From an uncultured Gammaproteobacteria bacterium (lineage in GTDB: Bacteria; Patescibacteriota; Microgenomatia; UBA10105; UBA927), in assembly GCA_964515005.1 (NCBI GenBank), contig CAZEVT010000004.1, positions 4,302-68,301 of the forward strand: a DNA stretch of 64,000 bases, written 5' to 3'. Of the stretch, positions 1 through 29,494 are shown piece by piece (within the stretch, counting starts at the first letter, position 1; every line of letters begins with the position of its first letter). The notes beneath the pieces are model-generated. The model saw nothing but the letters and a program-made list of their open reading frames with translations. It was not told the DNA's origin and searched no databases. The translations under genes and the position numbers were made by a program.

Positions 1-135
1 TTAAACGGCGGGTCAGACAGCTACCTCGATGTATCGCTTAACCAACTCAAGAGTGAACTTCCTCTTGCCATAAACGTCCACAAGTCAGCTGAAGAGGCGA
101 AAGTCTACACCGCCTGCGGTCCTCTTACCCCGTAA
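1..135 (+). CDS. possible 3' end of a + strand gene that starts upstream of the window (partial)
   Basis: frame 1 is open from position 1 to a TAA at 133-135 (44 sense codons, ...KSELPLAINVHKSAEEAKVYTACGPLTP*); no start within the window. Confidence 0.3.
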   Translation, partial: LNGGSDSYLDVSLNQLKSELPLAINVHKSAEEAKVYTACGPLTP

Positions 136-258
136 GGCGCTTGAAGTATTCAACCTGACGAAGTCTTTTTAATGCTTCCTCCCGCGTTTTGTAGGGCCCG
201 CCCATATTCCGCCGGGTTTTTTCGGAGAGCACGAAGTACCCTTTTTTTCTTTTAACTA

Positions 259-591
259 TCATTCTTTCGTATGTTTTTTGATTTCCCGAAGCAATTTTGC
301 TTTGGTTTTGTTTGCGCGGTCCAGGATTGCAAGTTCCAGGTTCACGACGGCGTGATCTTTGAGATATTGCATGAGCCCGGGGTCATGGGGCGCGGCGTGG
401 AACTTCGTGAGGAATTCTTCGTGTTTTTCACCCGGCAAATAGCTGAAGATGACGTCCAGGATTTCGTGCTGGATGGTCTGGTCAATGAGGATAAGAAGTT
501 TTTGCTTCTCGGCGGGTGTAAACTTATGCGCGTCCAGTACCGCAACCACTTCTTCAATGACAATGAGATGATCGTAAAATAGTTTAGACAT
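259..591 (-). CDS. hypothetical protein (110 aa)
   Basis: intact ORF lying 4 nt downstream of the co-directional 595..1509 ORF; no recognisable motif. Confidence 0.5.
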   Translation of the reverse strand: MSKLFYDHLIVIEEVVAVLDAHKFTPAEKQKLLILIDQTIQHEILDVIFSYLPGEKHEEFLTKFHAAPHDPGLMQYLKDHAVVNLELAILDRANKTKAKLLREIKKHTKE

Positions 592-594
592 ATG

Positions 595-1509
595 TTACGT
601 TGCCGCGAGCGGCCTCCCTACACGTACATTGTACTCCACAGGGCCCAAAGGAATCTCGCCGCTCGGGTCGTCGACAAAAAACAGGATAACCGCGCCTTTT
701 TGTTTCCCGACATTGTGGCCTAAGTATGCCATAACCTCGGGAGATCCTCCGTAATGCTTCCCCGTCCAGTCGGCGGGTCCTGCATCCGCTACATCCGCAA
801 CGAGTGTTTTGCCGTTTGCCGGATTGACGACCAGCACTTTCCGGTATTTGTACCAATCCCGCAGATACGGCAGCCGCTCCTGCCAGTCCGGAAGATACAA
901 CGTCTGCACGGCAACATACCATTTTTCTTTTTGGATGAGGTCCTCGGTGAGATCTCCCCTGGAATTGGCAAAGTAGCCCCAGGCGCCTTTCCCGGGCGTG
1001 ATCCCTGATCCCTGATATGCATCATGCGCTCCCACGGAGTCGCCGGGATACCGGGGGAGGTGCTGTTCGGCGCCCATATATCCGTAGCTGCGGTTTAGTC
1101 GTTCTCCTTGGAGCATGGCATTTGCGTCTATACCCCAAACACCTTTGATTTCGTTGGCGACAGCCTCTTCCTGCTGGTGGGTAAGTGGCTCCACGCCGTC
1201 AGGAAGCAGGGGCGTCAGCTGGTTACTTAATTCTTTCTGCAGGTCCGAAGGCGAAAGTTTGGCAATCGCGGTGTGGGGAGAGGAAGCTACCTGGTGGGCA
1301 AGCGGTTGGGCAAGGAGCATGGCGCCTGCCATAGCGGTCGTTGCGGCGACGCGTCCGGCGTGCTCGCGGATCCGCCCGGGGGTCAATCCGCGATCGGTAA
1401 AAAACTTGACCACATGCGGGTGGCGCTTGTGGAGTTTTTTCTCGGCTATTTGCGCCTGTTTCTGGAGGCCGAGGTACAGTTTACTCGTGTTGAGCGTGGC
1501 TTTGTACAT
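595..1509 (-). CDS. membrane-anchored secreted protein with a C-terminal RlpA-like (double-psi beta-barrel) signature
   Basis: N-terminal hydrophobic anchor (RVAATTAMAGAMLLAQPLA); C-terminal VVNPANGKTLVADVADAGP resembles the DPBB core of RlpA/3D-domain proteins. Confidence 0.5.
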   Translation of the reverse strand: MYKATLNTSKLYLGLQKQAQIAEKKLHKRHPHVVKFFTDRGLTPGRIREHAGRVAATTAMAGAMLLAQPLAHQVASSPHTAIAKLSPSDLQKELSNQLTPLLPDGVEPLTHQQEEAVANEIKGVWGIDANAMLQGERLNRSYGYMGAEQHLPRYPGDSVGAHDAYQGSGITPGKGAWGYFANSRGDLTEDLIQKEKWYVAVQTLYLPDWQERLPYLRDWYKYRKVLVVNPANGKTLVADVADAGPADWTGKHYGGSPEVMAYLGHNVGKQKGAVILFFVDDPSGEIPLGPVEYNVRVGRPLAAT

Positions 1510-1522
1510 TAGATATTAGTAT

Positions 1523-1590
1523 ACACGCACCTTACTCAGATTTGCAGCCCGACAGGGCGAAAAAGCTGATTAGATGCGTGGATATCCGGA
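1523..1590 (+). promoter_or_regulatory. conserved structured leader element, copy 1 (candidate cis-regulatory RNA)
   Basis: core UUACUCAGAUUUGCAGCCCGACAGGGCGAAAAAGCUGAUUAGAUG enclosed by the helix CACGCA/UGCGUG; two further copies with different closing helices; about 65 nt upstream of the 1658 start codon. Confidence 0.6.
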
Positions 1591-1657
1591 CTTACCTAAA
1601 TTTAGAGGGTGTACCGACTTGACAAGATCTGGTACATAGGGTTTACTTACATAAGAG

Positions 1658-2272
1658 ATGAAAAAAGCCGGTATAGCCATAGCTGTCTTGATATTTTTGT
1701 TTAGTGCCGCACCGGTGAATGCCGCATGGAGGTTTGGGGATTATTTTCCAAGAAGAACGCCTACCCCCAGAGTGTATCCCACGAGAGTCCAACCAACTTC
1801 AGCATCTGCAAGATCTACAGAGAAGGCAGCGAACCTGGCCGTGCGGACACAGGCAGTCGTCACCCGGATGCTCAATAGCTACCAAAATAGATTGGACAAT
1901 TACAAAGACTTCCTGGCCAAAGTGAAATTACGCCGCGATAAACTTGCGGCGGACGGCAAGGATGTTGCCCGGCTGGATGCGTTTATCCTGCGGGCGACGG
2001 ATAATGCGGCCAATGCGGAGTCAGTGCTCAACAGCGCCAAAACCGCGTTAGGTCTTTTGGATTATACTATGGACATGAAAGAGTTGCGACGCGCGATACA
2101 AACAGAACTTCGCAAGATCCGCCTGGCATTTACGCAGATGCACAAAAGCATGAGTGAAAACGTACGTGCAATTCGTGAATTGTCTTTGAGGTCAACTATT
2201 GCACCGACCAGAACACAACCGACGCGGGGTCCCTTTCCGACAAAACCAGGCAAAAGGGTAGGTCAACAATGA
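1658..2272 (+). CDS. secreted alpha-helical protein (signal peptide), hypothetical
   Basis: N-terminal signal-like segment (IAIAVLIFLFSAAPVNAA); helical, charged remainder; first gene downstream of element copy 1. Confidence 0.6.
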   Translation: MKKAGIAIAVLIFLFSAAPVNAAWRFGDYFPRRTPTPRVYPTRVQPTSASARSTEKAANLAVRTQAVVTRMLNSYQNRLDNYKDFLAKVKLRRDKLAADGKDVARLDAFILRATDNAANAESVLNSAKTALGLLDYTMDMKELRRAIQTELRKIRLAFTQMHKSMSENVRAIRELSLRSTIAPTRTQPTRGPFPTKPGKRVGQQ

Positions 2273-2499
2273 AACATAAACATTTTAGAACCGTTGTGAT
2301 CTTTGTGGTTGTAGCCATTGCCTTTCTGGTCTACATTGTCGGCGTGGTACGCCAAGGCGCCGGATCGACCCAGAGCCGCGCCTCACGCAGTGAAACTTTG
2401 ACCCCCGGGGATGATGCCCTATCACTTGAACAGGACCTCAACAAACTTCAACAGGACCCCGAGCCCGGTGTTGAGCAGGAGCTCAACGCTATCCAGTAA
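2269..2499 (+). CDS. small single-pass membrane protein, hypothetical
   Basis: 4-nt overlap with the upstream gene; one transmembrane helix (VVIFVVVAIAFLVYIVGVV). Confidence 0.5.
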   Translation: MKHKHFRTVVIFVVVAIAFLVYIVGVVRQGAGSTQSRASRSETLTPGDDALSLEQDLNKLQQDPEPGVEQELNAIQ

Positions 2500-2508
2500 C
2501 CCCATCTT

Positions 2509-2799
2509 ATGGACGGTACGCTACGCGTTTCCATCCGGGTACGGAAATACTTGTGGGATGAGTTTGTGCATGACGTGGCCTACTTCCTCTACGCCACCAT
2601 CATCATTTCCAACGCCCTCTCCAAGCGGTACCTCCACCGCTCATTGCAGCAACTTATCGACGGCATATGGGCGATTCCGAACTTCCTTGCCGGAGTTATA
2701 CTTCTGATCCTAGCCGGCGCAGCAGGAATGGTCGTGATGGCGTCCATGTTTGCCATTCCGGTAATTCTGTACCTCGCCTCCACCGGAAGGCTTCAGTGA
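2509..2799 (+). CDS. small membrane protein, hypothetical
   Basis: ORF carrying two hydrophobic helices; third gene of the putative 1658..2799 operon. Confidence 0.5.
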   Translation: MDGTLRVSIRVRKYLWDEFVHDVAYFLYATIIISNALSKRYLHRSLQQLIDGIWAIPNFLAGVILLILAGAAGMVVMASMFAIPVILYLASTGRLQ

Positions 2800-2839
2800 G
2801 GGGAAACATCGTATTTTGAGCGTGAGGGGAGTATACAGC

Positions 2840-2904
2840 CCATCTTACTCAGATTTGTAGTCCGACAGGACGAAAAAGCTGATTAGATGGATGGATACCC
2901 GGAC
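2840..2904 (+). promoter_or_regulatory. conserved structured leader element, copy 2
   Basis: same core as copy 1; closing helix CCAUCU/AGAUGG; inner hairpin GUCC-GACA-GGAC carries a compensatory double change relative to GCCC-GACA-GGGC. Confidence 0.6.
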
Positions 2905-2928
2905 TTTCCTTAATTTATAGGGTATAAT

Positions 2929-3297
2929 TTGAGCATTCCTCTGATGAAATCATATATACGATTTGCACATCGCCTGATGACGCTCATGGATACAAAATTT
3001 AACCTTTTTGGTATCCGGTTTGGGATAGATCCGCTTCTGGATATCTGGCCGGGTTTTGGAAGTTTGATCGGAGCGGGCATTTCCAGTTATCTCTTTTGGA
3101 TAGCCTACAAGCTGAATGTTCCCACGCGGCTCTACTTACGCATGGGTTGGCACATAGCGGTAGATTTTGTATTGGGCGCGATACCGTTTGTAGGATTTGC
3201 CTTTGACCTTTTCTACCGTGCAAATGCAAAAAACCTCGCACTTCTTACCCCATACGTAGATTCAGAAATACTTGAGGGAGTGGTGATGGAGAGATAA
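2929..3297 (+). CDS. DUF4112-like small membrane protein
   Basis: GIDPLLDIWPGFGSLIGAGIS motif typical of DUF4112. The ORF opens at a TTG at 2929, but ATG 2944 (MKSYIRF) is the more likely start. A TATAAT lies at 2923-2928. Confidence 0.6.
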   Translation: MSIPLMKSYIRFAHRLMTLMDTKFNLFGIRFGIDPLLDIWPGFGSLIGAGISSYLFWIAYKLNVPTRLYLRMGWHIAVDFVLGAIPFVGFAFDLFYRANAKNLALLTPYVDSEILEGVVMER

Positions 3298-3366
3298 TCG
3301 AAGTGTATGGAGTTTACACTGAGTTCTACCGAAGTGAGCGCGGGAAGAGTATAATTTGGCGTAGTT

Positions 3367-4050
3367 ATGATCAAAGTTTTGCCTAAAGGTGCCGGTCATA
3401 GAAAACGATTAAGAGATAGATTTCTACAATCGGGCTTAGATGGATTTCTAGATTATGAAGTGATCGAATTGCTTTTAACTTTGGGAACACCCAGACGGGA
3501 TTGTAAGCAGATGGCGAAAGATGTGGTTAAAAAATTTAATGGGTTACGCGGCGCTCTTGATGCCTCAATTGAAGAATTACAAAATATTAGTGGAATAGGT
3601 CCGTATAATGCATTTGGCCTAAAACTCTTTCAGGAAATGTCTGCGCGTCTGGCAAGGGAGCAAATACCAGAAAAGATTACGCTCGATTCTTCAAAAGCTG
3701 TTGCGAATTATTTACAAAAATCTATAGGTTCAAAAAAGAAAGAATATTTTATTATGTTATCTTTAGACGCACGAAATAACTTAATAAAGATTAGTAATAT
3801 TTCAGTTGGTTCGCTTAACGCAAGCATTGTGCACCCAAGGGAGATTTTTAAAGAGGCAATTCAATCTTCTGCTGCGCACATATTAATAGCGCACAATCAT
3901 CCATCGGGTGACCCTGAAGCTTCGCCGGAAGATGTTGCCTTAACGCGACGATTGGGGGAAGCCGCAAAGATTTTTGACATAGATTTACTTGATCATGTTA
4001 TAGTTACAAGAGACAATTTTTTTAGCTTAAAGGAGCAAAATTTAATTTAA
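3367..4050 (+). CDS. radC: RadC-like JAB-domain protein (UPF0758)
   Basis: HNHPSGDPEASPEDVALTRRL JAMM/JAB motif and overall RadC length; first gene of the AT-rich island. Confidence 0.85.
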   Translation: MIKVLPKGAGHRKRLRDRFLQSGLDGFLDYEVIELLLTLGTPRRDCKQMAKDVVKKFNGLRGALDASIEELQNISGIGPYNAFGLKLFQEMSARLAREQIPEKITLDSSKAVANYLQKSIGSKKKEYFIMLSLDARNNLIKISNISVGSLNASIVHPREIFKEAIQSSAAHILIAHNHPSGDPEASPEDVALTRRLGEAAKIFDIDLLDHVIVTRDNFFSLKEQNLI

Positions 4051-4054
4051 ATAA

Positions 4055-4402
4055 ATGTCTGGTATAAAAAAACTTACAGAAAAAATTAAGAAATTTCGAG
4101 ATGAGCGAGATTGGAAACAATTTCATAACCCGAAAGATATGTCCCTTTCGCTAGTTTTGGAGGCGGCAGAGGTAATGGAGCATTTCCAATGGATGAGTTC
4201 AGAAGAAATGATAGTTTATACAAAAAGTAATAAGCATGAAATTGGTGAAGAGTTGGCAGACGTATTATATTGGATTCTTCTCATAAGTCATGATTTAGAG
4301 ATTGATATTATAGATGCATTAGAAAAGAAGCTTATAATTCAAGAAAAAAAATATCCAATAGAAAAAGCTAAGGGGAAGCACACTAAATATAACAAGCTTT
4401 AA
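4055..4402 (+). CDS. MazG-like nucleotide pyrophosphohydrolase domain protein
   Basis: about 115 aa; LEAAEVMEHFQW and EELADVLYWIL helices characteristic of MazG/NTP-PPase all-alpha domains; 4 nt after radC. Confidence 0.7.
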   Translation: MSGIKKLTEKIKKFRDERDWKQFHNPKDMSLSLVLEAAEVMEHFQWMSSEEMIVYTKSNKHEIGEELADVLYWILLISHDLEIDIIDALEKKLIIQEKKYPIEKAKGKHTKYNKL

Positions 4403-4405
4403 ATT

Positions 4406-6265
4406 ATGATCCTTTACGATGCCTCTATAGAACATTTTAATGAAGACGTAATGCAAAATCGTATTGCAGATCGTGCAGCCGAAAAATATCACGCGTACTA
4501 TAAAAGACAACCGGGGGAGTCTGAATATCGTTCATGGGCAATGTCGTTGGCAATTTTAAACAATAGCTTCATCTATGCTGGACTTAAAGATAATCATATA
4601 GTAGTTGAATACGAGCTCCCATTCGCTTCACAAAGGATCGATGTGTTATTGTTTGGACATGATGTTGATGGAAAAGAAAATATAGTGATTATGGAGCTTA
4701 AACAGTGGTCAAATGACAATGTTAAGGATTCAATTTCAGAGGGAAATATAATCGTTAATTATGGAAAATTCAAAAAAGAACAACCCCATCCGGCTTTGCA
4801 GGTGCAGGGGTATTATTTCGGTTTGAAAGATTTTGTTCAAGTTTTTGATGAAACAAATGCTCCAGATTTGAGCGCGACTATCTATGCACATAATTATTCG
4901 AAATACAAAGATGCAACACTCTTTTCTCCTAAATATTCTGAATTAATAAAAACGTTCCCGATATTTACAAAAGAAGATGCTGTCGAACTCGGCAGGTATT
5001 TAAAAAAACGTCTCCAAAGTGGAAAGGGGCAGTTGGTTTATGAACACTTTGCAAGAAGTCCAATCGGCCCATCAAAAAAACTTCTTGATCACACGAGTGA
5101 AATGATTAATAAACAACAAATATTTAACTTAATTGATGATCAAATTGTAGCGTACAACGCCATCATGCACAAAGCAAAACAGTTAGCAAAAATAAAAAAG
5201 AAATCAGTAATAATCGTAAAAGGTGGTCCTGGCACAGGGAAGTCAGTCATCGCGCTCGAGGTTATGGGTGAGCTTTTAAGGCGGGGAAAAACGGTTATGC
5301 ACGCTACTGGTTCGTCCGCGTTTACAAACACACTTAGAAAAATTGTTGGCGTTCGCGCACGAACTCTCTTCAAGTTTTTTAATGGCTTTACAACAACCAA
5401 ACCAGATTCTCTTGATGTTCTTGTCTGTGATGAGGCACATCGTATTAGAGAGACTAGTGTGAACAGATACACTCCTAGAGATCAAAGAACAAATTTGCCT
5501 CAGATCGACGAATTATTAAGAATAGCAAAGCTAAATATTTTCTTTATCGATGAAAATCAAACAGTTCGCCCAAATGAAATCGGCAGTGTTGCAATCATTA
5601 AAGAAGCTGCCAGACGCTTTGAGATCGATGAGTCAGAAATAATTGAATTTGAATTAAAAACCCAGTTTCGTTGTTCTGGGTCGGATGCATATTTACAATG
5701 GATTGATAAAGTTTTAGATATTCAAGGTTCTGACATCGCACACTTTGATCCTAAAATGGAATTTCGTATTTTTGAGTCTCCGTCTGAAATGATGACGGAA
5801 ATTAGAGCTAGAAATCAAGAGAAGGGCAATTCTGCAAGAATAGTTGCTGGGTTTTGCTGGCCATGGAGTAATCCAAATAGTGACGGGTCCTTAGTAAGTG
5901 ATGTAAAGGTTGGTAATTTTGAAATGCCGTGGGAGAAAAAAAATGAGTTTTGGAAATGGGCAACTGACCCGAGTGGAATGGAACAAGTTGGAACAGTGTA
6001 TACGTCACAAGGTTTTGAGTTTGACTATATAGGCGTCATATTCGGTAACGATTTAGTGTATGACTTGAAAAAACAAAAATGGATTGTAAAACCAGAAAAT
6101 TCACACGACACAATGGTTACAAGAAACAATGAAGACCTAGATAGACATTTAAAAAATGTATACCGGGTACTTATGTCCAGAGCTCACAAAGGGGTTTATG
6201 TATATTTTGTGGATAAGGCAACTGAAGAGTACTTTAAAGCTAATCTTAAAGAAGAACAAAAATGA
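4406..6265 (+). CDS. DUF2075-family ATPase/helicase-like protein with an N-terminal PD-(D/E)xK-like nuclease domain (Schlafen-like architecture)
   Basis: N-terminal QRIDVLLFG...IVIMELKQW (D...ExK); Walker A GGPGTGKS; Walker B/DEAH-like LVCDEAHR; C-terminal TVYTSQGFEFDYIGVIFG typical of DUF2075/UvrD-like C-termini. Confidence 0.8.
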   Translation: MILYDASIEHFNEDVMQNRIADRAAEKYHAYYKRQPGESEYRSWAMSLAILNNSFIYAGLKDNHIVVEYELPFASQRIDVLLFGHDVDGKENIVIMELKQWSNDNVKDSISEGNIIVNYGKFKKEQPHPALQVQGYYFGLKDFVQVFDETNAPDLSATIYAHNYSKYKDATLFSPKYSELIKTFPIFTKEDAVELGRYLKKRLQSGKGQLVYEHFARSPIGPSKKLLDHTSEMINKQQIFNLIDDQIVAYNAIMHKAKQLAKIKKKSVIIVKGGPGTGKSVIALEVMGELLRRGKTVMHATGSSAFTNTLRKIVGVRARTLFKFFNGFTTTKPDSLDVLVCDEAHRIRETSVNRYTPRDQRTNLPQIDELLRIAKLNIFFIDENQTVRPNEIGSVAIIKEAARRFEIDESEIIEFELKTQFRCSGSDAYLQWIDKVLDIQGSDIAHFDPKMEFRIFESPSEMMTEIRARNQEKGNSARIVAGFCWPWSNPNSDGSLVSDVKVGNFEMPWEKKNEFWKWATDPSGMEQVGTVYTSQGFEFDYIGVIFGNDLVYDLKKQKWIVKPENSHDTMVTRNNEDLDRHLKNVYRVLMSRAHKGVYVYFVDKATEEYFKANLKEEQK

Positions 6266-6963
6266 GACAAATACAAGATGACGTCCTTTCGTATAGGGAA
6301 ATGTGCGATGCGGAAAAGGTTCAAACGCTTCAGAGAGGAATGAATTTTCGCCTCAATTCGTCATATTCAGTTATTTTAATGTCCCAGAGATCAAATGCAC
6401 CTTATGCAGATAGGATACATTCTGATGGAGTAACCATTGAATATGAGGGACATGATGTATCGCGCCAGTCATACACCCACAATCCAAAGCTTGAAGATCA
6501 ATCGCATCAGCTACCCTCAGGCAAGCTCACGCAAAATGGTTTGTTTATTGATTCAATTAATAAATACAAAGAAAATAAATCGACACCCGAGCGCGTAAAG
6601 GCGTACGAAAAAATTATGAATGGTGTCTGGTCATTGAAGGGCTATTTTGATCTCATTGACTACAAAATAGTGAATGACGGCAAGCGCAACGTATTTCGAT
6701 TTATTTTACGACTCTCGGATAAACAATCCCCTGATACGAATATTCAGAACATGCAGCTTAGTCATACACGTCTTATTCCATCTGAGGTAAAAAAAGAAGT
6801 GTGGAAGAGAGATGAAGGTAAATGTGTCAAATGCGGATCTCGAGAAAATTTACATTTCGATCACGATTTGCCCTTTTCACGAGGTGGAACAAGTCTAACA
6901 GCGAAGAACGTACGACTATTATGTTTGAAACACAATTTAGAAAAATCAGCGAAAATTCAGTAG
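6262..6963 (+). CDS. HNH endonuclease with an uncharacterised ~170-aa N-terminal domain
   Basis: C-terminal CVKCGS...LHFDHDLPFSRGG...LLCLKHN HNH motif; ATGA overlap with the upstream ATPase gene. Confidence 0.8.
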   Translation: MRQIQDDVLSYREMCDAEKVQTLQRGMNFRLNSSYSVILMSQRSNAPYADRIHSDGVTIEYEGHDVSRQSYTHNPKLEDQSHQLPSGKLTQNGLFIDSINKYKENKSTPERVKAYEKIMNGVWSLKGYFDLIDYKIVNDGKRNVFRFILRLSDKQSPDTNIQNMQLSHTRLIPSEVKKEVWKRDEGKCVKCGSRENLHFDHDLPFSRGGTSLTAKNVRLLCLKHNLEKSAKIQ

Positions 6964-7204
6964 CATTTTCTTAAACGAATTTTACCCGACACCGGTGGGG
7001 AGGGTTGAGGTGGAGGGAATGGTAAGACATAGATGCCATCGGTACGCTCAGCACAACTGAATACTTAATAATCTTCAATGCTAGAACTCCAAGGTAAAAA
7101 ATTTATCTATCACATGATTGAGTATCTTTGATACTTTTTGATATAAAAAAGCTATATTGTTTTTTGGCAGTCTTTAGATCATACTGCTTAAGTAGCTCAA
7201 TTTT

Positions 7205-7495
7205 ATGCTTGATTATGATGATATGACTACCAAAGAATTAAAAGAAAAAGAAACAGTAAGAACAAATGATCTGCTTTTAGAACTCAACAATAGAGTAGGA
7301 GTAATGATTTCTCTGCTTTTACGGATGGTGCAACAAGACAAATCATCAATAAGCCTAAAAGATCAAATTCAAATTCTTAACAATCTAGGTTTACGCCCTC
7401 GTGACATTGCCGCTATCCTTGGTAAGACCCCTACTCACATCAGTAAAGAACTTGTTGGCATAAGAAAAACAAAAACAACAGCAACCGAGGAGTAA
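7205..7495 (+). CDS. small sigma70-region-4-like HTH protein, paralog 1 of a tandem array
   Basis: ILNNLGLRPRDIAAILGKTPTHISKELVGIRK resembles the sigma70_r4/LuxR-type HTH; start may instead be Met-7. Confidence 0.55.
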   Translation: MLDYDDMTTKELKEKETVRTNDLLLELNNRVGVMISLLLRMVQQDKSSISLKDQIQILNNLGLRPRDIAAILGKTPTHISKELVGIRKTKTTATEE

Positions 7496-7501
7496 TCGAC
7501 T

Positions 7502-7717
7502 ATGAGCGACCTGCAATTACTTGAACAAATATCTAACAAGCTGAGTGCATTAATTGCGCTTTCTCTACCAAGTGACGTAATAAAAATGTCTACAGCAGAC
7601 GGAGAGCGATTACTCAGACGATTCGACCTAAACAATCAAGCTATAGCAGACATTTTGGGAACTACAAAGAGAACAATTGAAGTGATGAAGAGTAGAGATC
7701 AAAAAAATAATAAATAA
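7502..7717 (+). CDS. small sigma70-region-4-like HTH protein, paralog 2
   Basis: ERLLRRFDLNNQAIADILGTTKRTIEVMKSR; 7 nt after paralog 1. Confidence 0.55.
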   Translation: MSDLQLLEQISNKLSALIALSLPSDVIKMSTADGERLLRRFDLNNQAIADILGTTKRTIEVMKSRDQKNNK

Positions 7718-7719
7718 AC

Positions 7720-7908
7720 ATGGAAGACACAAAGGAAATCGAAAAAACGCTTAATAATCTCAAAAAATCAATTGATACTTTGATTTTGCTTGAGCTTTGT
7801 AAACTCGGTGCCGGCGCAAAAGAAATTCGAAATATTTTAGGGGGTTTGGACAATAATCAATTTTCCGCTATAAATGCAGCTATCAAAGGAGGCAAACAAC
7901 ATGGATGA
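7720..7908 (+). CDS. small HTH-like protein, paralog 3
   Basis: LCKLGAGAKEIRNILG; 3 nt after paralog 2; same N-terminal amphipathic helix pattern. Confidence 0.5.
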   Translation: MEDTKEIEKTLNNLKKSIDTLILLELCKLGAGAKEIRNILGGLDNNQFSAINAAIKGGKQHG

Positions 7909-8080
7909 AAAAATTATCGGCATCCTAGAGGATATAAAAAAATTAGTAATTCTTGGTTTAATTACACGCGGTGTTCAGGGAAAAGACATAGCCCAGGTAA
8001 TCGGGGTAGATAAAAGCACGATCACGAGAATAGCCCCAGCACGAAAAATAAAAGTGAATAAAATAGATGAGCAGATATAA
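7901..8080 (+). CDS. small HTH-like protein, paralog 4
   Basis: LGLITRGVQGKDIAQVIGVDKSTITRIA. The ORF track opens at 7874, but ATG 7901 gives an 8-nt overlap with paralog 3 and is preferred. Confidence 0.5.
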   Translation: MDEKIIGILEDIKKLVILGLITRGVQGKDIAQVIGVDKSTITRIAPARKIKVNKIDEQI

Positions 8081-8477
8081 TCCCGATTTAATAAAAAAAA
8101 TAAGTCAAAAACTTAACAAAGCCCCGACCTATATTCGAGAGCAGATAAGCCGACGTGCATTACGACATAATATTTTATCAGAGGCAGAATTAGCCAATTG
8201 GGCAAGATCTTTAGGAATTTCTGCGGATTCATATATCCGCACATTATCGCCAAGTGTTCAAAGTCAAATTTTATCAACTCCCTCACCTGTTAAAAATTAT
8301 TTTTCTAAACCCTCAGTACTAAGGATTGTTCAACTTGGTAAAAAAGAAAATGAATGGTATAACCTTTGGTGGGTGCAGCTACTAATAGCCTTTTTTGTAG
8401 TAGGGATATTAGCAAGTACAATTTCTCAAATTTTAGGGGTATATTTTACAAATTCACTCGGTTTAACTAAACCATAA
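8067..8477 (+). CDS. membrane-anchored relative of the HTH array (N-terminal HTH-like segment plus C-terminal TM helix)
   Basis: SEAELANWARSLGISADSYIRTL followed by the hydrophobic WWVQLLIAFFVVGILASTISQILGVYF; overlaps paralog 4. Confidence 0.5.
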   Translation: MSRYNPDLIKKISQKLNKAPTYIREQISRRALRHNILSEAELANWARSLGISADSYIRTLSPSVQSQILSTPSPVKNYFSKPSVLRIVQLGKKENEWYNLWWVQLLIAFFVVGILASTISQILGVYFTNSLGLTKP

Positions 8478-8581
8478 GTCGCAGACATGCCTTGAAGCCT
8501 AAATTATTTCCCCACGGCGTGGATTGCCGGAGAAATGATTACACACCGGGTGTGAAATAGCTAGACACCTAATAAAAATTT

Positions 8582-8609
8582 ATGTATAAACTTTCTCCAT
8601 CAGATTTTG
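8582..8609 (+). repeat. 28-bp direct repeat, copy A (5' end of the nuclease gene)
   Basis: atgtataaactttctccatcagattttg matches 10253..10280 at 27 of 28 positions. Confidence 0.8.
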
Positions 8610-9229
8610 CTTATTTATACGAGGAGTGTAAGCATTGCTATTACCTGAAAATCCGTAAGGGCATTGGGCGGCCGAGCATGCCGTTCCCCGGAGTATTTGG
8701 CGCGATCAATACCAGATTGCAGGGGAATATGGTGGGGAAGGACTTGCGGGAGCTTTCGGATAAACTCCCCGAGGGGACCGTGGAGAGTCAGGAGGGGTAT
8801 GTGCAATCCGCCGTTATTGCCGGAACCACGGTATTTGTCAAAGGCAAGTATGATCTTCTGGTCAGACTCCCGGATGGCACGTACATGATAGTTGATCTCA
8901 AACTCAGTACTCCGAAAGATGAGAAGGTTGCCAAATATCAATCGCAACTATGGTCGTATGTATATGCCTTTGAACATCCTGCCGCGGGAGCACCAAAGAA
9001 GATAACGCGGGCGGGACTCCTGATTTTCTATCCCGATGCCGTTTCATTTGCCGGCGGCGTCGCTTCCCTTACGTTTCCGCCCACGTGGCTGGCGGTACCG
9101 GTGGACCGCGATGCATTTGCGAAGTTTATCGTAGGAGTGAACGATCTTTTGGAAGGCCCAACGCCGCCGGAGAATACGGATTGTAATTGGTGTAAATATA
9201 GACAAGCTGTTAAAGTGCTTGAAAACTGA
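8582..9229 (+). CDS. PD-(D/E)xK nuclease of the RecB/Cas4-like family with N- and C-terminal Cys pairs
   Basis: motifs KYDLLV, IVDLKLS (DxK) and QSQLWSYVYAF (QxxxY); CKHCYY near the N-terminus and CNWCKY near the C-terminus. Confidence 0.65.
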   Translation: MYKLSPSDFAYLYEECKHCYYLKIRKGIGRPSMPFPGVFGAINTRLQGNMVGKDLRELSDKLPEGTVESQEGYVQSAVIAGTTVFVKGKYDLLVRLPDGTYMIVDLKLSTPKDEKVAKYQSQLWSYVYAFEHPAAGAPKKITRAGLLIFYPDAVSFAGGVASLTFPPTWLAVPVDRDAFAKFIVGVNDLLEGPTPPENTDCNWCKYRQAVKVLEN

Positions 9230-9410: not shown

Positions 9411-10247
9411 ATGACCACCCGTGACATCGAAACGACGAAAATTGCCCTGTTCAAAGGGAAAAAGATAAGAAAAATTATTTATAACAACGACTGGTGGTTT
9501 TCGATTATTGACGTCATTGCAGCGCTTACGGGAAATGCTCGTCCGAGAAAATATTGGAGCGATCTAAAGAAGAAGCTTATTAAAGAAGGCTATTTTGAAG
9601 TGTCCGAAAAAATCGGACAGTTGAAATTGGAAGCTCCTGACGGGAAAAAGCGCGAAACTGACTGTGCAAACACAGAAACACTTTTCCGCATTGTCCAATC
9701 CATTCCCTCTCCGAAAGCAGAACCGTTTAAGCGCTGGCTGGCAAGAGTGGGGTATGAGCGAATCCAAGAAATAGAAGATCCGGAGCTTGCTACCAAGAGA
9801 ACGCGGATACTTTATAAACTGAAAGGATATCCAAATGATTGGATTGAAAAACGCATGCGCGGGATAGCGATTCGCGAAGAATTGACCGATGAATGGCAAA
9901 AACGAGGAGCAAGACATCAAAAAGAATATGAAATTCTTACCGCTGAGATTTCCAAAGCGACGTTCGGCGTTACTCCGAGTGGTTATAAAAAGCTGAAAGG
10001 TTTGAAGCGGGAGAATCTGCGCGATCATATGGATGATTTTGAGCTAATTTTTACCATGCTTGGTGAGCGATCAACGACGGAAATTCACCGTACAGAAGAT
10101 TCGAGGGGTGTGCCAAAACTAAAAGCAGATGCTAGAGCCGGTGGTGATATAGCCGGCGGAGCAAGAAAAAAGTTGGAAAAACGCTTAGCTCGTTCGATTG
10201 TTTCAAAAAATAATTATTTACCAAAGAGAAGAAAATCGTTAAAGTAA
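9411..10247 (+). CDS. Bro-N domain protein (phage antirepressor-like)
   Basis: IRKIIYNNDWWFSIIDVIAALTGNARPRKYWSDL and SPKAEPFKRWLARVGYERIQ match Bro-N signatures; TATAAT at 9399-9404. Confidence 0.75.
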   Translation: MTTRDIETTKIALFKGKKIRKIIYNNDWWFSIIDVIAALTGNARPRKYWSDLKKKLIKEGYFEVSEKIGQLKLEAPDGKKRETDCANTETLFRIVQSIPSPKAEPFKRWLARVGYERIQEIEDPELATKRTRILYKLKGYPNDWIEKRMRGIAIREELTDEWQKRGARHQKEYEILTAEISKATFGVTPSGYKKLKGLKRENLRDHMDDFELIFTMLGERSTTEIHRTEDSRGVPKLKADARAGGDIAGGARKKLEKRLARSIVSKNNYLPKRRKSLK

Positions 10248-10252
10248 TCTCT

Positions 10253-10280
10253 ATGTACAAACTTTCTCCATCAGATTTTG
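10253..10280 (+). repeat. 28-bp direct repeat, copy B
   Basis: atgtacaaactttctccatcagattttg; opens a 54-codon orphan ORF (MYKLSPSDFVSSGSG...) that lies antisense to the 10271..10816 gene. Confidence 0.8.
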
Positions 10281-10816
10281 TCAGTTCCGGGAGTGGGTTC
10301 CGGGGGGAGATTTTCTTCTCCGCTTGGGGCGGCTGCGCCGTAGTCACCGGGCTTGAGCCATTCGACATACGTGCAGCCGGTGGCCTGCCGCTTGGCCGCA
10401 TCCCAACCGCTGGTTGAACATTTTTTCATCTTCTTGCCCGTGGCCGTCGTGTACAGGACGAGCTTCTTGCCGCATTCCGGGCAATCTTCGTTGAGCTCTT
10501 CGGTCGTGCCGTTTATCCATTCGATATAGTCACACCCTTCGGCCTTCTTGGTGTCTTTGTTCCAGACGTTGGTCGAACATTTCTTCATCTTCTTTCCAAA
10601 CCGGGTGACTGCAAAAACAAGAGGCGAGCCGCATGTGGGACATTTCTCGTTCAAGGTTTTGGGCTCGGGCATGATCCATTTCACATAATCACAGCCTTCG
10701 TTTTTCTTCGTGTCTTTGTTCCAGGAGCCGGTAGAACAGCGCTGAAGCTGACGGCCGGATTTGGTTTCGACAACTTCTCCCAGAGGGGAACCACATTTGG
10801 GACACATATCTGCCAT
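10271..10816 (-). CDS. triple topoisomerase-type C4 zinc-ribbon protein
   Basis: three tandem repeats of CPxCGSPL...GKKMKKCST..WNKDTKK.EGCDY.EW resembling zf-C4_Topoisom. Confidence 0.7.
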   Translation of the reverse strand: MADMCPKCGSPLGEVVETKSGRQLQRCSTGSWNKDTKKNEGCDYVKWIMPEPKTLNEKCPTCGSPLVFAVTRFGKKMKKCSTNVWNKDTKKAEGCDYIEWINGTTEELNEDCPECGKKLVLYTTATGKKMKKCSTSGWDAAKRQATGCTYVEWLKPGDYGAAAPSGEENLPPEPTPGTDKI

Positions 10817-29378: not shown

Positions 29379-29426
29379 CGAAAGTGATCCCTTGCGGAAG
29401 TAGATATTTGTAAGTAAAATAACATA

Positions 29427-29494
29427 TACTCATTTTACTCAGGTTTGCAGCCCGATAGGGCGAAAAAACTGATTAGATGAGTAGATACCCGGAC
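29427..29494 (+). promoter_or_regulatory. conserved structured leader element, copy 3
   Basis: same core; closing helix UACUCAU/AUGAGUA; ends about 20 nt before ATG 29516. Confidence 0.6.

Follow-up and report, generated by a model that had tools for sequence, protein, structure and literature searches.

A candidate anti-phage cassette combining RadC, a MazG-like pyrophosphatase, a nuclease-helicase and an SRA-HNH protein in an uncultured bacterium

The window analysed here, a stretch of 64,000 nucleotides from contig CAZEVT010000004.1 of an uncultured bacterium (assembly GCA_964515005.1), carries near its start four closely packed open reading frames (ORFs) on the + strand. In order, these encode a RadC protein (gene 1, 3367-4050, 227 aa), a MazG-like pyrophosphatase (gene 2, 4055-4402, 115 aa), a DUF2075 nuclease-helicase (gene 3, 4406-6265, 619 aa) and an SRA-HNH protein (gene 4, 6262-6963, 233 aa). 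An earlier note on this DNA had reported four + strand ORFs spaced by 4, 3 and -4 nt, and both the ORF list and the junction sequences bear this out: genes 1 and 2 meet at TAA-ATAA-ATG (4 nt), genes 2 and 3 at TAA-ATT-ATG (3 nt), and the stop of gene 3 overlaps the start of gene 4 in ATGA (-4 nt). As read from the sequence, translation of gene 4 is coupled to that of the helicase gene in the window. A scan for promoters and terminators returned nothing exceeding the shuffled expectation; a TATAAT lies 12 nt 5' of the radC ATG, which is an observation on the letters only.

The four genes, together with five small ORFs downstream of them, lie in an island of 36% GC (3300..8550, no strand assigned) where the composition profile falls to ~32-39% GC. 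The per-gene GC content is 0.373 for radC, 0.319 for mazG, 0.370 for gene 3, 0.389 for gene 4 and 0.353 for the small ORFs, compared with 0.511 in the left flank (1-3300), 0.492 in the right (10300-64000) and ~50% across the genome. The four-gene cassette is horizontally acquired, and because radC has the low GC content of the island, it too came in with the imported DNA and does not belong to the resident housekeeping genes. The ORF list and a Pfam scan showed no genes for an integrase, for replication or for transfer in the island.

Gene 1 (3367..4050, +) encodes a full-length RadC with a UPF0758 N-terminal domain, a helix-hairpin-helix and a RadC-type JAB domain, as identified by Pfam (RadC 1.4e-43, UPF0758_N 1.2e-10, HhH 5e-4) and by comparison with PDB entry 2qlc (6e-26). 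The JAMM motif, E...HxH...S..D, is intact, with E126, H176-x-H178, S186 and D189 kept in 19 RadC proteins from the module. Iyer and colleagues have proposed that RadC acts on nucleic acids or nucleotides, not on ubiquitin-like tails (PMC5512222). The possibility that radC is a chance housekeeping neighbour was rejected, given that it has a low GC content like the island and is found on either side of mazG elsewhere.

Gene 2 (4055..4402, +) encodes a MazG-like all-alpha nucleoside triphosphate (NTP) pyrophosphohydrolase of the DCTPP1/RS21-C6-like kind, according to Pfam, PDB and its metal ligands. The Pfam family MazG-like (PF12643) was matched at 2e-14 (54 bits, cut-off 27), and among solved structures the protein is closest to the archaeal-type pyrophosphatase 4qgp (2.3e-19) and to dCTP pyrophosphatase 1/RS21-C6 (2.8e-15). 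The ligands E36, E39, E66 and D69 are kept in 35 homologues. Gene 2 thus belongs to the same family as DCTPP1/RS21-C6 and the other all-alpha MazG house-cleaning enzymes, with which it shares the E-x2-E...E-x2-D metal site and the small size; whereas the DCTPP1/RS21-C6 type is a housekeeping gene, however, gene 2 sits in a mobile defence cassette. The MazG domain has been predicted to be defensive, without validation (PMC13092281), and in PUA-HAD systems a MazG-like enzyme can stand in for the Calcineurin-CE effector, which depletes deoxynucleoside triphosphates (dNTPs).

Gene 3 consists of two parts. The C-terminal domain (5201..6265, +) is a superfamily 1 (SF1) helicase of the DUF2075/SLFN-group-3 type, matching Pfam SLFN-g3_helicase/DUF2075 (PF09848) at 1.8e-84 over residues 266-603. 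Its Walker A motif, GGPGTGKS (residues 273-280, nt 5222-5245), and the DEAH (residues 342-345, nt 5426-5443) within CDEAHR (341-346) are nearly invariant across the family. The N-terminal domain (4406..5170, +) is assigned, from its homologues and motifs, as a NERD-like PD-(D/E)xK nuclease. Pfam NERD (PF08378) matches 9 of 18 homologous gene 3 N-termini (best E 3.4e-5), and E68, D79, E97, K99, Q100 and W101 are invariant, the putative catalytic set E68, D79 and E97-x-K99 (E97-L-K99 in gene 3 itself) remaining so at 28% identity. No AlbA_2 or SLFN core was matched in Pfam, and a phmmer search of the whole protein against the PDB gave no match. The "Schlafen-like architecture" that had been ascribed to this protein therefore stands for the helicase half (PF09848) and falls for the N-terminus, which is NERD-like and has no Schlafen core. 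Group III Schlafens (SLFN5/11/13) have the same C-terminal helicase Pfam family as gene 3, but they carry a Schlafen core/AlbA_2 RNase where gene 3 has its NERD-like domain.

The closest architectural parallel to gene 3 is provided by Nhi (S. epidermidis SERP2475; Bari et al. 2022) and Nhi-like (Millman et al. 2022), experimentally shown single-protein defence systems that unite an N-terminal nuclease and a DUF2075 helicase in one polypeptide, as gene 3 does, and that are likewise plasmid- or island-borne and horizontally spread. Among the PADLOC models, gene 3 matched PDC-S41 (2.5e-21, in two partial stretches), Nhi (1.2e-13) and AbiO (5.2e-12); the Nhi and AbiO matches fall on the helicase region, and the resemblance to Nhi covers part of the helicase only, with residues 249-468 falling on model positions 190-372 of 470. 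In contrast to Nhi and Nhi-like, which were described as single-gene systems, the clade of gene 3 almost always has a MazG-like gene before it, and often a RadC and a modified-DNA reader or nuclease as well.

Gene 4 ends in an HNH (beta-beta-alpha-Me) nuclease with a CxxC...C..H zinc site (6823..6963, +). The Pfam HNH match is barely above its cut-off (2e-4, 21.8 bits against 21.4), and matches to PHROG HNH families reach 4e-9. The motifs CVKCG (188-192) and HFDHD (198-202) are present, and C188, C191, H198, D200, H201, N216, C221, H224 and N225 are invariant in an alignment of 35 sequences. The N-terminal domain (~residues 1-160; 6262..6740, +) is a predicted SRA-like reader of modified bases: an SRA fold was found, and in the same alignment Y48, D50 and Y61 are invariant, with a spacing that resembles that of TagI Y55/Y67. 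These three residues are candidates for the two tyrosines and the carboxylate of a flipped-base pocket. The figures for SRA-type proteins were 11.0 for the SUVH5 SRA, 10.7 for LpnPI, 10.3 for TagI, 10.1 for ScoMcrA, 9.9 for UHRF1, 8.7 for MspJI, 8.3 for SauUSI and 8.2 for AbaSI. The description of gene 4 as an HNH nuclease with an unknown N-terminal domain was accordingly right about the nuclease, and the N-terminus can now be named. Profile searches with Pfam and NCBIfam upheld all four of the original domain calls (RadC/JAB, MazG, nuclease-DUF2075 and HNH).

The SRA fold, the invariant Y48/D50/Y61 and the HNH residues together give gene 4 the architecture of an SRA-HNH Type IV (modification-dependent) enzyme. 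Such enzymes include TagI, ScoA3IV and TbiR51I, of which TagI restricts the 5-hydroxymethylcytosine (5hmC) phage T4gt (PMC6212794). A phmmer search of gene 4 against all PDB sequences returned neither TagI nor ScoMcrA, the best hit being an IscB HNH (E 0.013); as sequence search makes no connection and the likeness is at the level of the fold only, gene 4 forms a subfamily separate from TagI. It is also smaller, at 233 aa against the 285-residue TagI chain, and while TagI-type enzymes are NTP-independent and solo, gene 4 is often in an operon with an ATP-dependent nuclease-helicase and MazG. The arrangement differs as well from the ATP-dependent Type IV enzymes (SauUSI, McrBC) and Type ISP, in that the reader-nuclease and the motor-nuclease are two polypeptides here and the motor is an SF1 DUF2075 helicase, versus SF2 or AAA+ in those enzymes. 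In an independent metagenome assembly (L103, JGI 3300010391), the operon is identical to that of the window except for a T>A change at window position 6635 (L103:3444), which turns the Leu125 codon of gene 4 from TTG into a TAG stop; either the change is due to a sequencing error, or the Type IV enzyme is naturally knocked out there.

Genes 3 and 4 each have thousands of relatives at 70-87% identity. The metagenome-assembled genomes (MAGs) that hold homologues at 57-87% identity are labelled as bacteria (Levybacteria, Saccharibacteria, Doudnabacteria, Gammaproteobacteria, Acidobacteriota, Syntrophaceae and Spirochaetales) and as archaea (Bathyarchaeia, Nanoarchaeota, Woesearchaeota, Pacearchaeota and Micrarchaeota). 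Around DUF2075 genes used as seeds (21 genome loci), mazG lies immediately upstream in 17 and radC, on either side of mazG, in 11, and the SRA-HNH gene is present in 4 of the 19 that are informative for it (~21%). When the HNH gene was the seed (80 metagenome loci, 30 of them on contigs too short to judge), it was linked to mazG and/or DUF2075 in 27. This linkage holds where the DUF2075 partners are only 28-44% identical, with HNH at 71-85% and mazG at 58-69%. The earlier note would have been contradicted by genes that never occur together elsewhere; all four co-occur in at least nine other loci (L001, L002, L004/L084, L005, L022, L031, L053/L068, L080 and L116). The arrangement recurs on many unrelated contigs, which makes it more than chance. 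Gene order varies, with HNH-radC-mazG-DUF2075 in L080, L081, L091 and L093 and mazG-radC-DUF2075-HNH in L116. A uniform four-gene module thus gives way to a modular unit in which MazG and DUF2075 form the core (17/21), RadC is a frequent companion in about half and SRA-HNH is optional; the four genes are not an obligate set.

Several loci depart from this pattern around the MazG or HNH gene. In L051 and L081, MazG adjoins a partner of the HNH gene that is not DUF2075. L114 has a gene with a weak match to DUF4406 (nucleoside deoxyribosyltransferase-like) ahead of MazG, RadC and DUF2075 (L114:6573-9860), a second MazG downstream (L114:11002-11316) and an SLFN_AlbA_2 gene nearby, which hints at a larger nucleotide-catabolising set. 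The arrangements at L051/L081 and L114 fit a nucleotide-centred role.

The MazG-DUF2075 pair is also found in cultured organisms. A tblastn search of plasmids returned distant homologues of gene 3 (24-41% identity), and cross-matching of the hit coordinates placed MazG directly upstream of DUF2075 on more than 20 plasmids of the Bacillus cereus group, megaplasmids included, with a MazG 48-50% identical to that of the window. The companions of DUF2075 differ from host to host. Priestia aryabhattai has, within a Type I restriction-modification (RM) island, a protein with MrcB_N (McrB-like, binding modified DNA) followed by MazG-like and DUF2075 genes; Halalkalicoccus jeotgali has MazG, DUF2075 and an EEP nuclease; B. 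thuringiensis pKK1 has NTP-PPase, HNH and DUF2075; B. thuringiensis IS5056 has HNH, two small ORFs, MazG and DUF2075; and Streptomyces has a DUF3883 protein followed by DUF2075. The Streptomyces arrangement repeats one noted before, in which modification-dependent restriction enzymes of the McaZI type lie next to DUF2075 NTPases (PMC6765204). When the gene 4 family was compared by hhalign with the Bacillus HNH proteins beside MazG-DUF2075, the HNH core alone aligned. As the adjacency of MazG and DUF2075, with gaps of a few nt, persists from 24% to 87% identity and in both Bacteria and Archaea, it argues for a unit of at least two genes.

The surroundings of the module are those of a defence island. 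Its neighbours, or those of the HNH gene, at other loci include AbiP2/DRT (4e-168), PDC-S18 (4e-82), a DpnI-like methyl-directed restriction endonuclease (REase), MvaI/BcnI, REase_II, an N6_N4 methylase, a Ppl-like ATPase, a caspase-like protein, AbiEii and an OLD-like TOPRIM ATPase. Searching 1.84 billion representative proteins with gene 3 yielded 685 clusters at E <= 1e-30. Among these relatives (36-62% identical) are proteins with a C-terminal Peptidase_S24 (LexA-like) or TIR fusion, and others with an N-terminal N6_Mtase or a Type_ISP_C C-terminal specificity domain (P0245, P0250, P0272, P0300, P0274, P0294; L010:8001-10394, L021:7995-10364); the two S24-fusion loci, L010 and L021, are both without radC. 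The fusions to TIR, S24, methylase and Type ISP domains group this DUF2075 clade with the motor-nuclease modules that serve restriction-type and abortive-infection immunity. The first reading of the locus as an operon-like, defence-type module is supported. IMG/VR held no close relatives of gene 3, gene 4 or the cas4-like gene described below. A phage or plasmid origin was considered and rejected on the lack of close IMG/VR relatives and the finding of distant matches only (<=39-41% identity) in phage and plasmid collections.

On balance, we think that the locus is probably a mobile anti-phage cassette in which MazG and DUF2075 form the core, RadC is accessory and SRA-HNH is a semi-autonomous restriction gene. 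Sequence and structure comparison shows what the domains are, that their active sites are intact, that synteny is conserved, that the genes were transferred together and that they lie in defence islands. How the four proteins might cooperate, on which substrates and in what order, we infer as follows. The SRA domain would flip out a modified cytosine (of the 5-methylcytosine/5hmC type, as with TagI) in invading DNA, which HNH would nick or cut. The ATP-driven nuclease-helicase could then load on the ends of foreign DNA or on replication intermediates, which it would degrade processively, as proposed for Nhi. MazG may hydrolyse modified, non-canonical dNTPs, which would starve phages with modified genomes and might also keep salvaged modified nucleotides out of host DNA, so that no self-restriction occurs. 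Least certain is the part of RadC, which may be an auxiliary DNA-binding hydrolase or a regulator.

A number of points weigh against the anti-phage cassette as just described. Gene 1 passes the housekeeping equivalog model for RadC in NCBIfam (NF000642, 225.7 bits, cut-off 180). To our knowledge, RadC has no established biochemistry, and for decades there has been no agreed function. The substrate specificity of MazG is guessed solely from its similarity to DCTPP1 (E 3e-15). The gene 3 of the window itself gives no Pfam NERD match, its homologues alone doing so, and the profile of its N-terminal domain returned only noise from the PDB (E > 1). The AlphaFold2 model of residues 1-260, built on a 32-sequence alignment that was too shallow (67-91% identity) to yield a good one, had a predicted local distance difference test score (pLDDT) of 41 and was unusable for a fold search. 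SRA-like domains can also read N6-methyladenine (m6A), as reported for HHPV4I, so that gene 4 might recognise a modification of another type. Finally, the ~115 loci were retrieved by similarity and are a biased small sample of more than 5000 family members, and the taxonomic labels of the MAGs may reflect mis-binning.

The co-occurrence counts raise a further difficulty. The cassette could be a stack of independent systems, since SRA-HNH is often solo, in restriction-rich islands too, and TagI-type enzymes, Nhi and Nhi-like each act alone. Under this explanation, independent SRA-HNH, Nhi-like (with or without MazG) and RadC genes would have come to lie side by side because defence genes gather at shared hot spots, with the tight spacing reflecting a compact genome. 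The HNH gene occurs without DUF2075 or mazG in 14 loci with both flanks informative and in 9 more where the upstream flank alone is informative, and DUF2075 occurs without HNH in 15 of 19. HNH is also found beside DpnI-like, MvaI/BcnI, PDC-S18 and AbiP2 genes, the identities are decoupled (71-85% for HNH versus 28-79% for DUF2075), and the L103 variant has a nonsense mutation in HNH alone. However, mere stacking does not account well for the ATGA overlap of gene 3 and gene 4, for a link between HNH and mazG/DUF2075 in 27 of the 41-50 informative loci, with divergent DUF2075 clades and in several orders, or for the fact that in Bacillus and Priestia MazG-DUF2075 is accompanied by another HNH or modified-DNA reader. 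The few-nt adjacency of MazG and DUF2075, kept from 24% to 87% identity across Bacteria and Archaea, speaks against it too. We regard stacking as a serious but rather unlikely account of the locus.

The prominence of MazG, the most constant partner of DUF2075 (17/21), would also suit abortive infection by nucleotide depletion, in which the nuclease-helicase would sense DNA of the phage or replication intermediates, MazG, once activated, would hydrolyse canonical dNTPs/NTPs and stop replication, and HNH and RadC would be auxiliary. The catalytic residues of MazG are intact, the replacement of Calcineurin-CE by a MazG-like enzyme in PUA-HAD systems offers a precedent for dNTP depletion, and relatives of gene 3 carry a suicide-type TIR or an S24 autoprotease. 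Yet the MazG here is a free-standing protein of 115 aa without an obvious regulatory domain, and the cell would be poisoned if it hydrolysed canonical dNTPs constitutively. Gene 3 has its own nuclease with invariant catalytic residues and is therefore not merely a sensor, and DCTPP1/RS21-C6, the closest characterised relatives of MazG here, are described as sanitising enzymes that prefer non-canonical dCTP analogues (PMC13510388). Depletion of canonical nucleotides accordingly seems to us quite improbable. Still harder to credit is a locus with no part in immunity, whether it serves DNA repair or nucleotide housekeeping, or helps a mobile element to replicate or to counter restriction. RadC would then be a repair protein and MazG a house-cleaning enzyme, with the helicase-nuclease and HNH acting on the DNA of the element itself. 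The equivalog match of RadC, the frequency of RadC-type JAB and MazG proteins on conjugative elements and phages, the phage family match (4.8e-90) of a BRO-N gene after the island and the circularly permuted gene order at L002 would fit it, but the island has no genes for an integrase, replication or transfer and no close relatives in IMG/VR, and a patchy spread across domains at high identity is what defence genes typically show. Restriction and abortive-infection genes make up the great majority of the neighbours, the architecture of gene 4 is that of enzymes restricting modified phage DNA, and TIR, methylase or Type ISP specificity domains occur as fusions to relatives of gene 3.

Each piece of the anti-phage cassette is of a known kind: an Nhi-like nuclease-helicase, an SRA-HNH Type IV enzyme, a MazG pyrophosphatase and a RadC. 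The expectation that profile searches might place genes 3 and 4 in known systems was partly realised, in that gene 3 has the Nhi/Nhi-like architecture and gene 4 that of the single-gene SRA-HNH enzymes (TagI family). The earlier note could name no defence system for the set as a whole, and none in PADLOC covers it; neither the MazG nor the RadC of the window has any match in PADLOC-DB 2.0. The literature searched on RadC with MazG and a helicase, and on MazG in defence, contained no description of this operon. What is absent from both PADLOC-DB 2.0 and that literature is the MazG-DUF2075 pairing, the RadC companion and the recurrent coupling to modified-DNA readers.

In these loci, a nuclease-helicase of the Nhi type has MazG and RadC as conserved partners; in eukaryotes, the relatives of its helicase are the antiviral Schlafen proteins. 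Should the partnership be functional, it would show the coupling of a nucleotide-pool enzyme to DNA-targeting immunity, and the Nhi-like systems that present tools annotate as "single-gene" would often turn out to belong to larger operons. A bolder and tentative idea, which we would not call likely, is that MazG, NERD-DUF2075, RadC and a swappable reader (SRA-HNH, MrcB_N or DUF3883) form one unrecognised, prokaryote-wide, multi-component restriction system that attacks modified phage genomes through ATP-driven degradation of reader-flagged DNA and through destruction of modified dNTPs by the DCTPP1-like enzyme, the latter also conferring self-immunity against autoimmunity driven by salvage. 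If true, prokaryotes would have their own version of eukaryotic DCTPP1 sanitation, linked to a helicase of the Schlafen type. The partnership of MazG and the nuclease-helicase is directly testable, because the MazG-DUF2075 pair is present on megaplasmids of culturable B. cereus-group strains and in Priestia. The cassette is also among the few defence modules common to bacteria of the candidate phyla radiation (CPR) and DPANN archaea at high identity, groups whose immune repertoires are poorly known.

Two protein families without annotation lie directly beside SRA-HNH at other loci. The first, C10 (331-396 aa; L081:3576-4766, L030:3255-4361, L051:822-1817), takes the place of DUF2075 downstream of mazG in L081 and L051; the second is C5 (344-376 aa; L097:4029-5159, L032:1829-2863). 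Neither family has a Pfam or PDB match. C5 weakly matches the PADLOC model REase_II (Type II REase, 5e-11), and D...ExK motifs can be made out by eye in the C-termini of both.

Downstream of gene 4, the island holds five packed small ORFs of 96, 71, 62, 68 and 136 aa (7205..8477, +), with weak matches to HTH_23 and to PADLOC PDC-M64B/C (1e-4 to 3e-3). They have a common "IAxILG" motif, weakly like a helix-turn-helix, and resemble a small DNA-binding protein duplicated in tandem. The same ORFs are present in the independent assemblies L102 and L103, but were not found conserved by BLAST in the other module loci, and their membership in the system is uncertain.

Beyond them lies a cas4-like PD-(D/E)xK gene (8582..9229, +; PDDEXK_1 1.7e-10, PADLOC Cas4 6e-7) with a host-like GC content of 50%; in 8 loci, homologues of it (cluster C4) are recurrent neighbours of the module. 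Its opening 28-29 nt (8581-8609) are repeated with 97% identity at 10252-10280, after a gene for a BRO-N domain protein (9411-10247; phrog_15286 at 4.8e-90), so that the repeats bracket a 1.67-kb segment of the cas4-like and BRO-N genes. Truncated 5' copies of the cas4-like gene stand at island borders elsewhere (L022:9709, L044:3634). These repeats suggest a recombination or integration hot spot at which defence cassettes are exchanged. In L002, a 48%-identical BRO-N homologue lies upstream of radC, which makes the gene order there a circular permutation of that in the window; L002 was rejected as a circular element, there being no terminal overlap.

The host genes flanking the island of the window encode a DUF4112 protein (2929-3297, +) and a repeated zinc-ribbon protein (10271-10816, -). 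Both also adjoin the module in L025 and L026, where HNH is 82% and DUF2075 43% identical, a pattern that suggests in-place swapping of the helicase-nuclease gene. An intergenic element of ~70-97 nt occurs in three copies (~86% identical) at 1518-1615, 2830-2928 and 29421-29494, each just 5' of a + strand ORF. It matched no Rfam family, a single tRNA being the only Rfam hit obtained, and might act as a conserved leader or as an RNA that regulates in cis; RNAalifold folds it into a hairpin of ~58 nt with 20 pairs, 3 of which are kept through two-sided changes.

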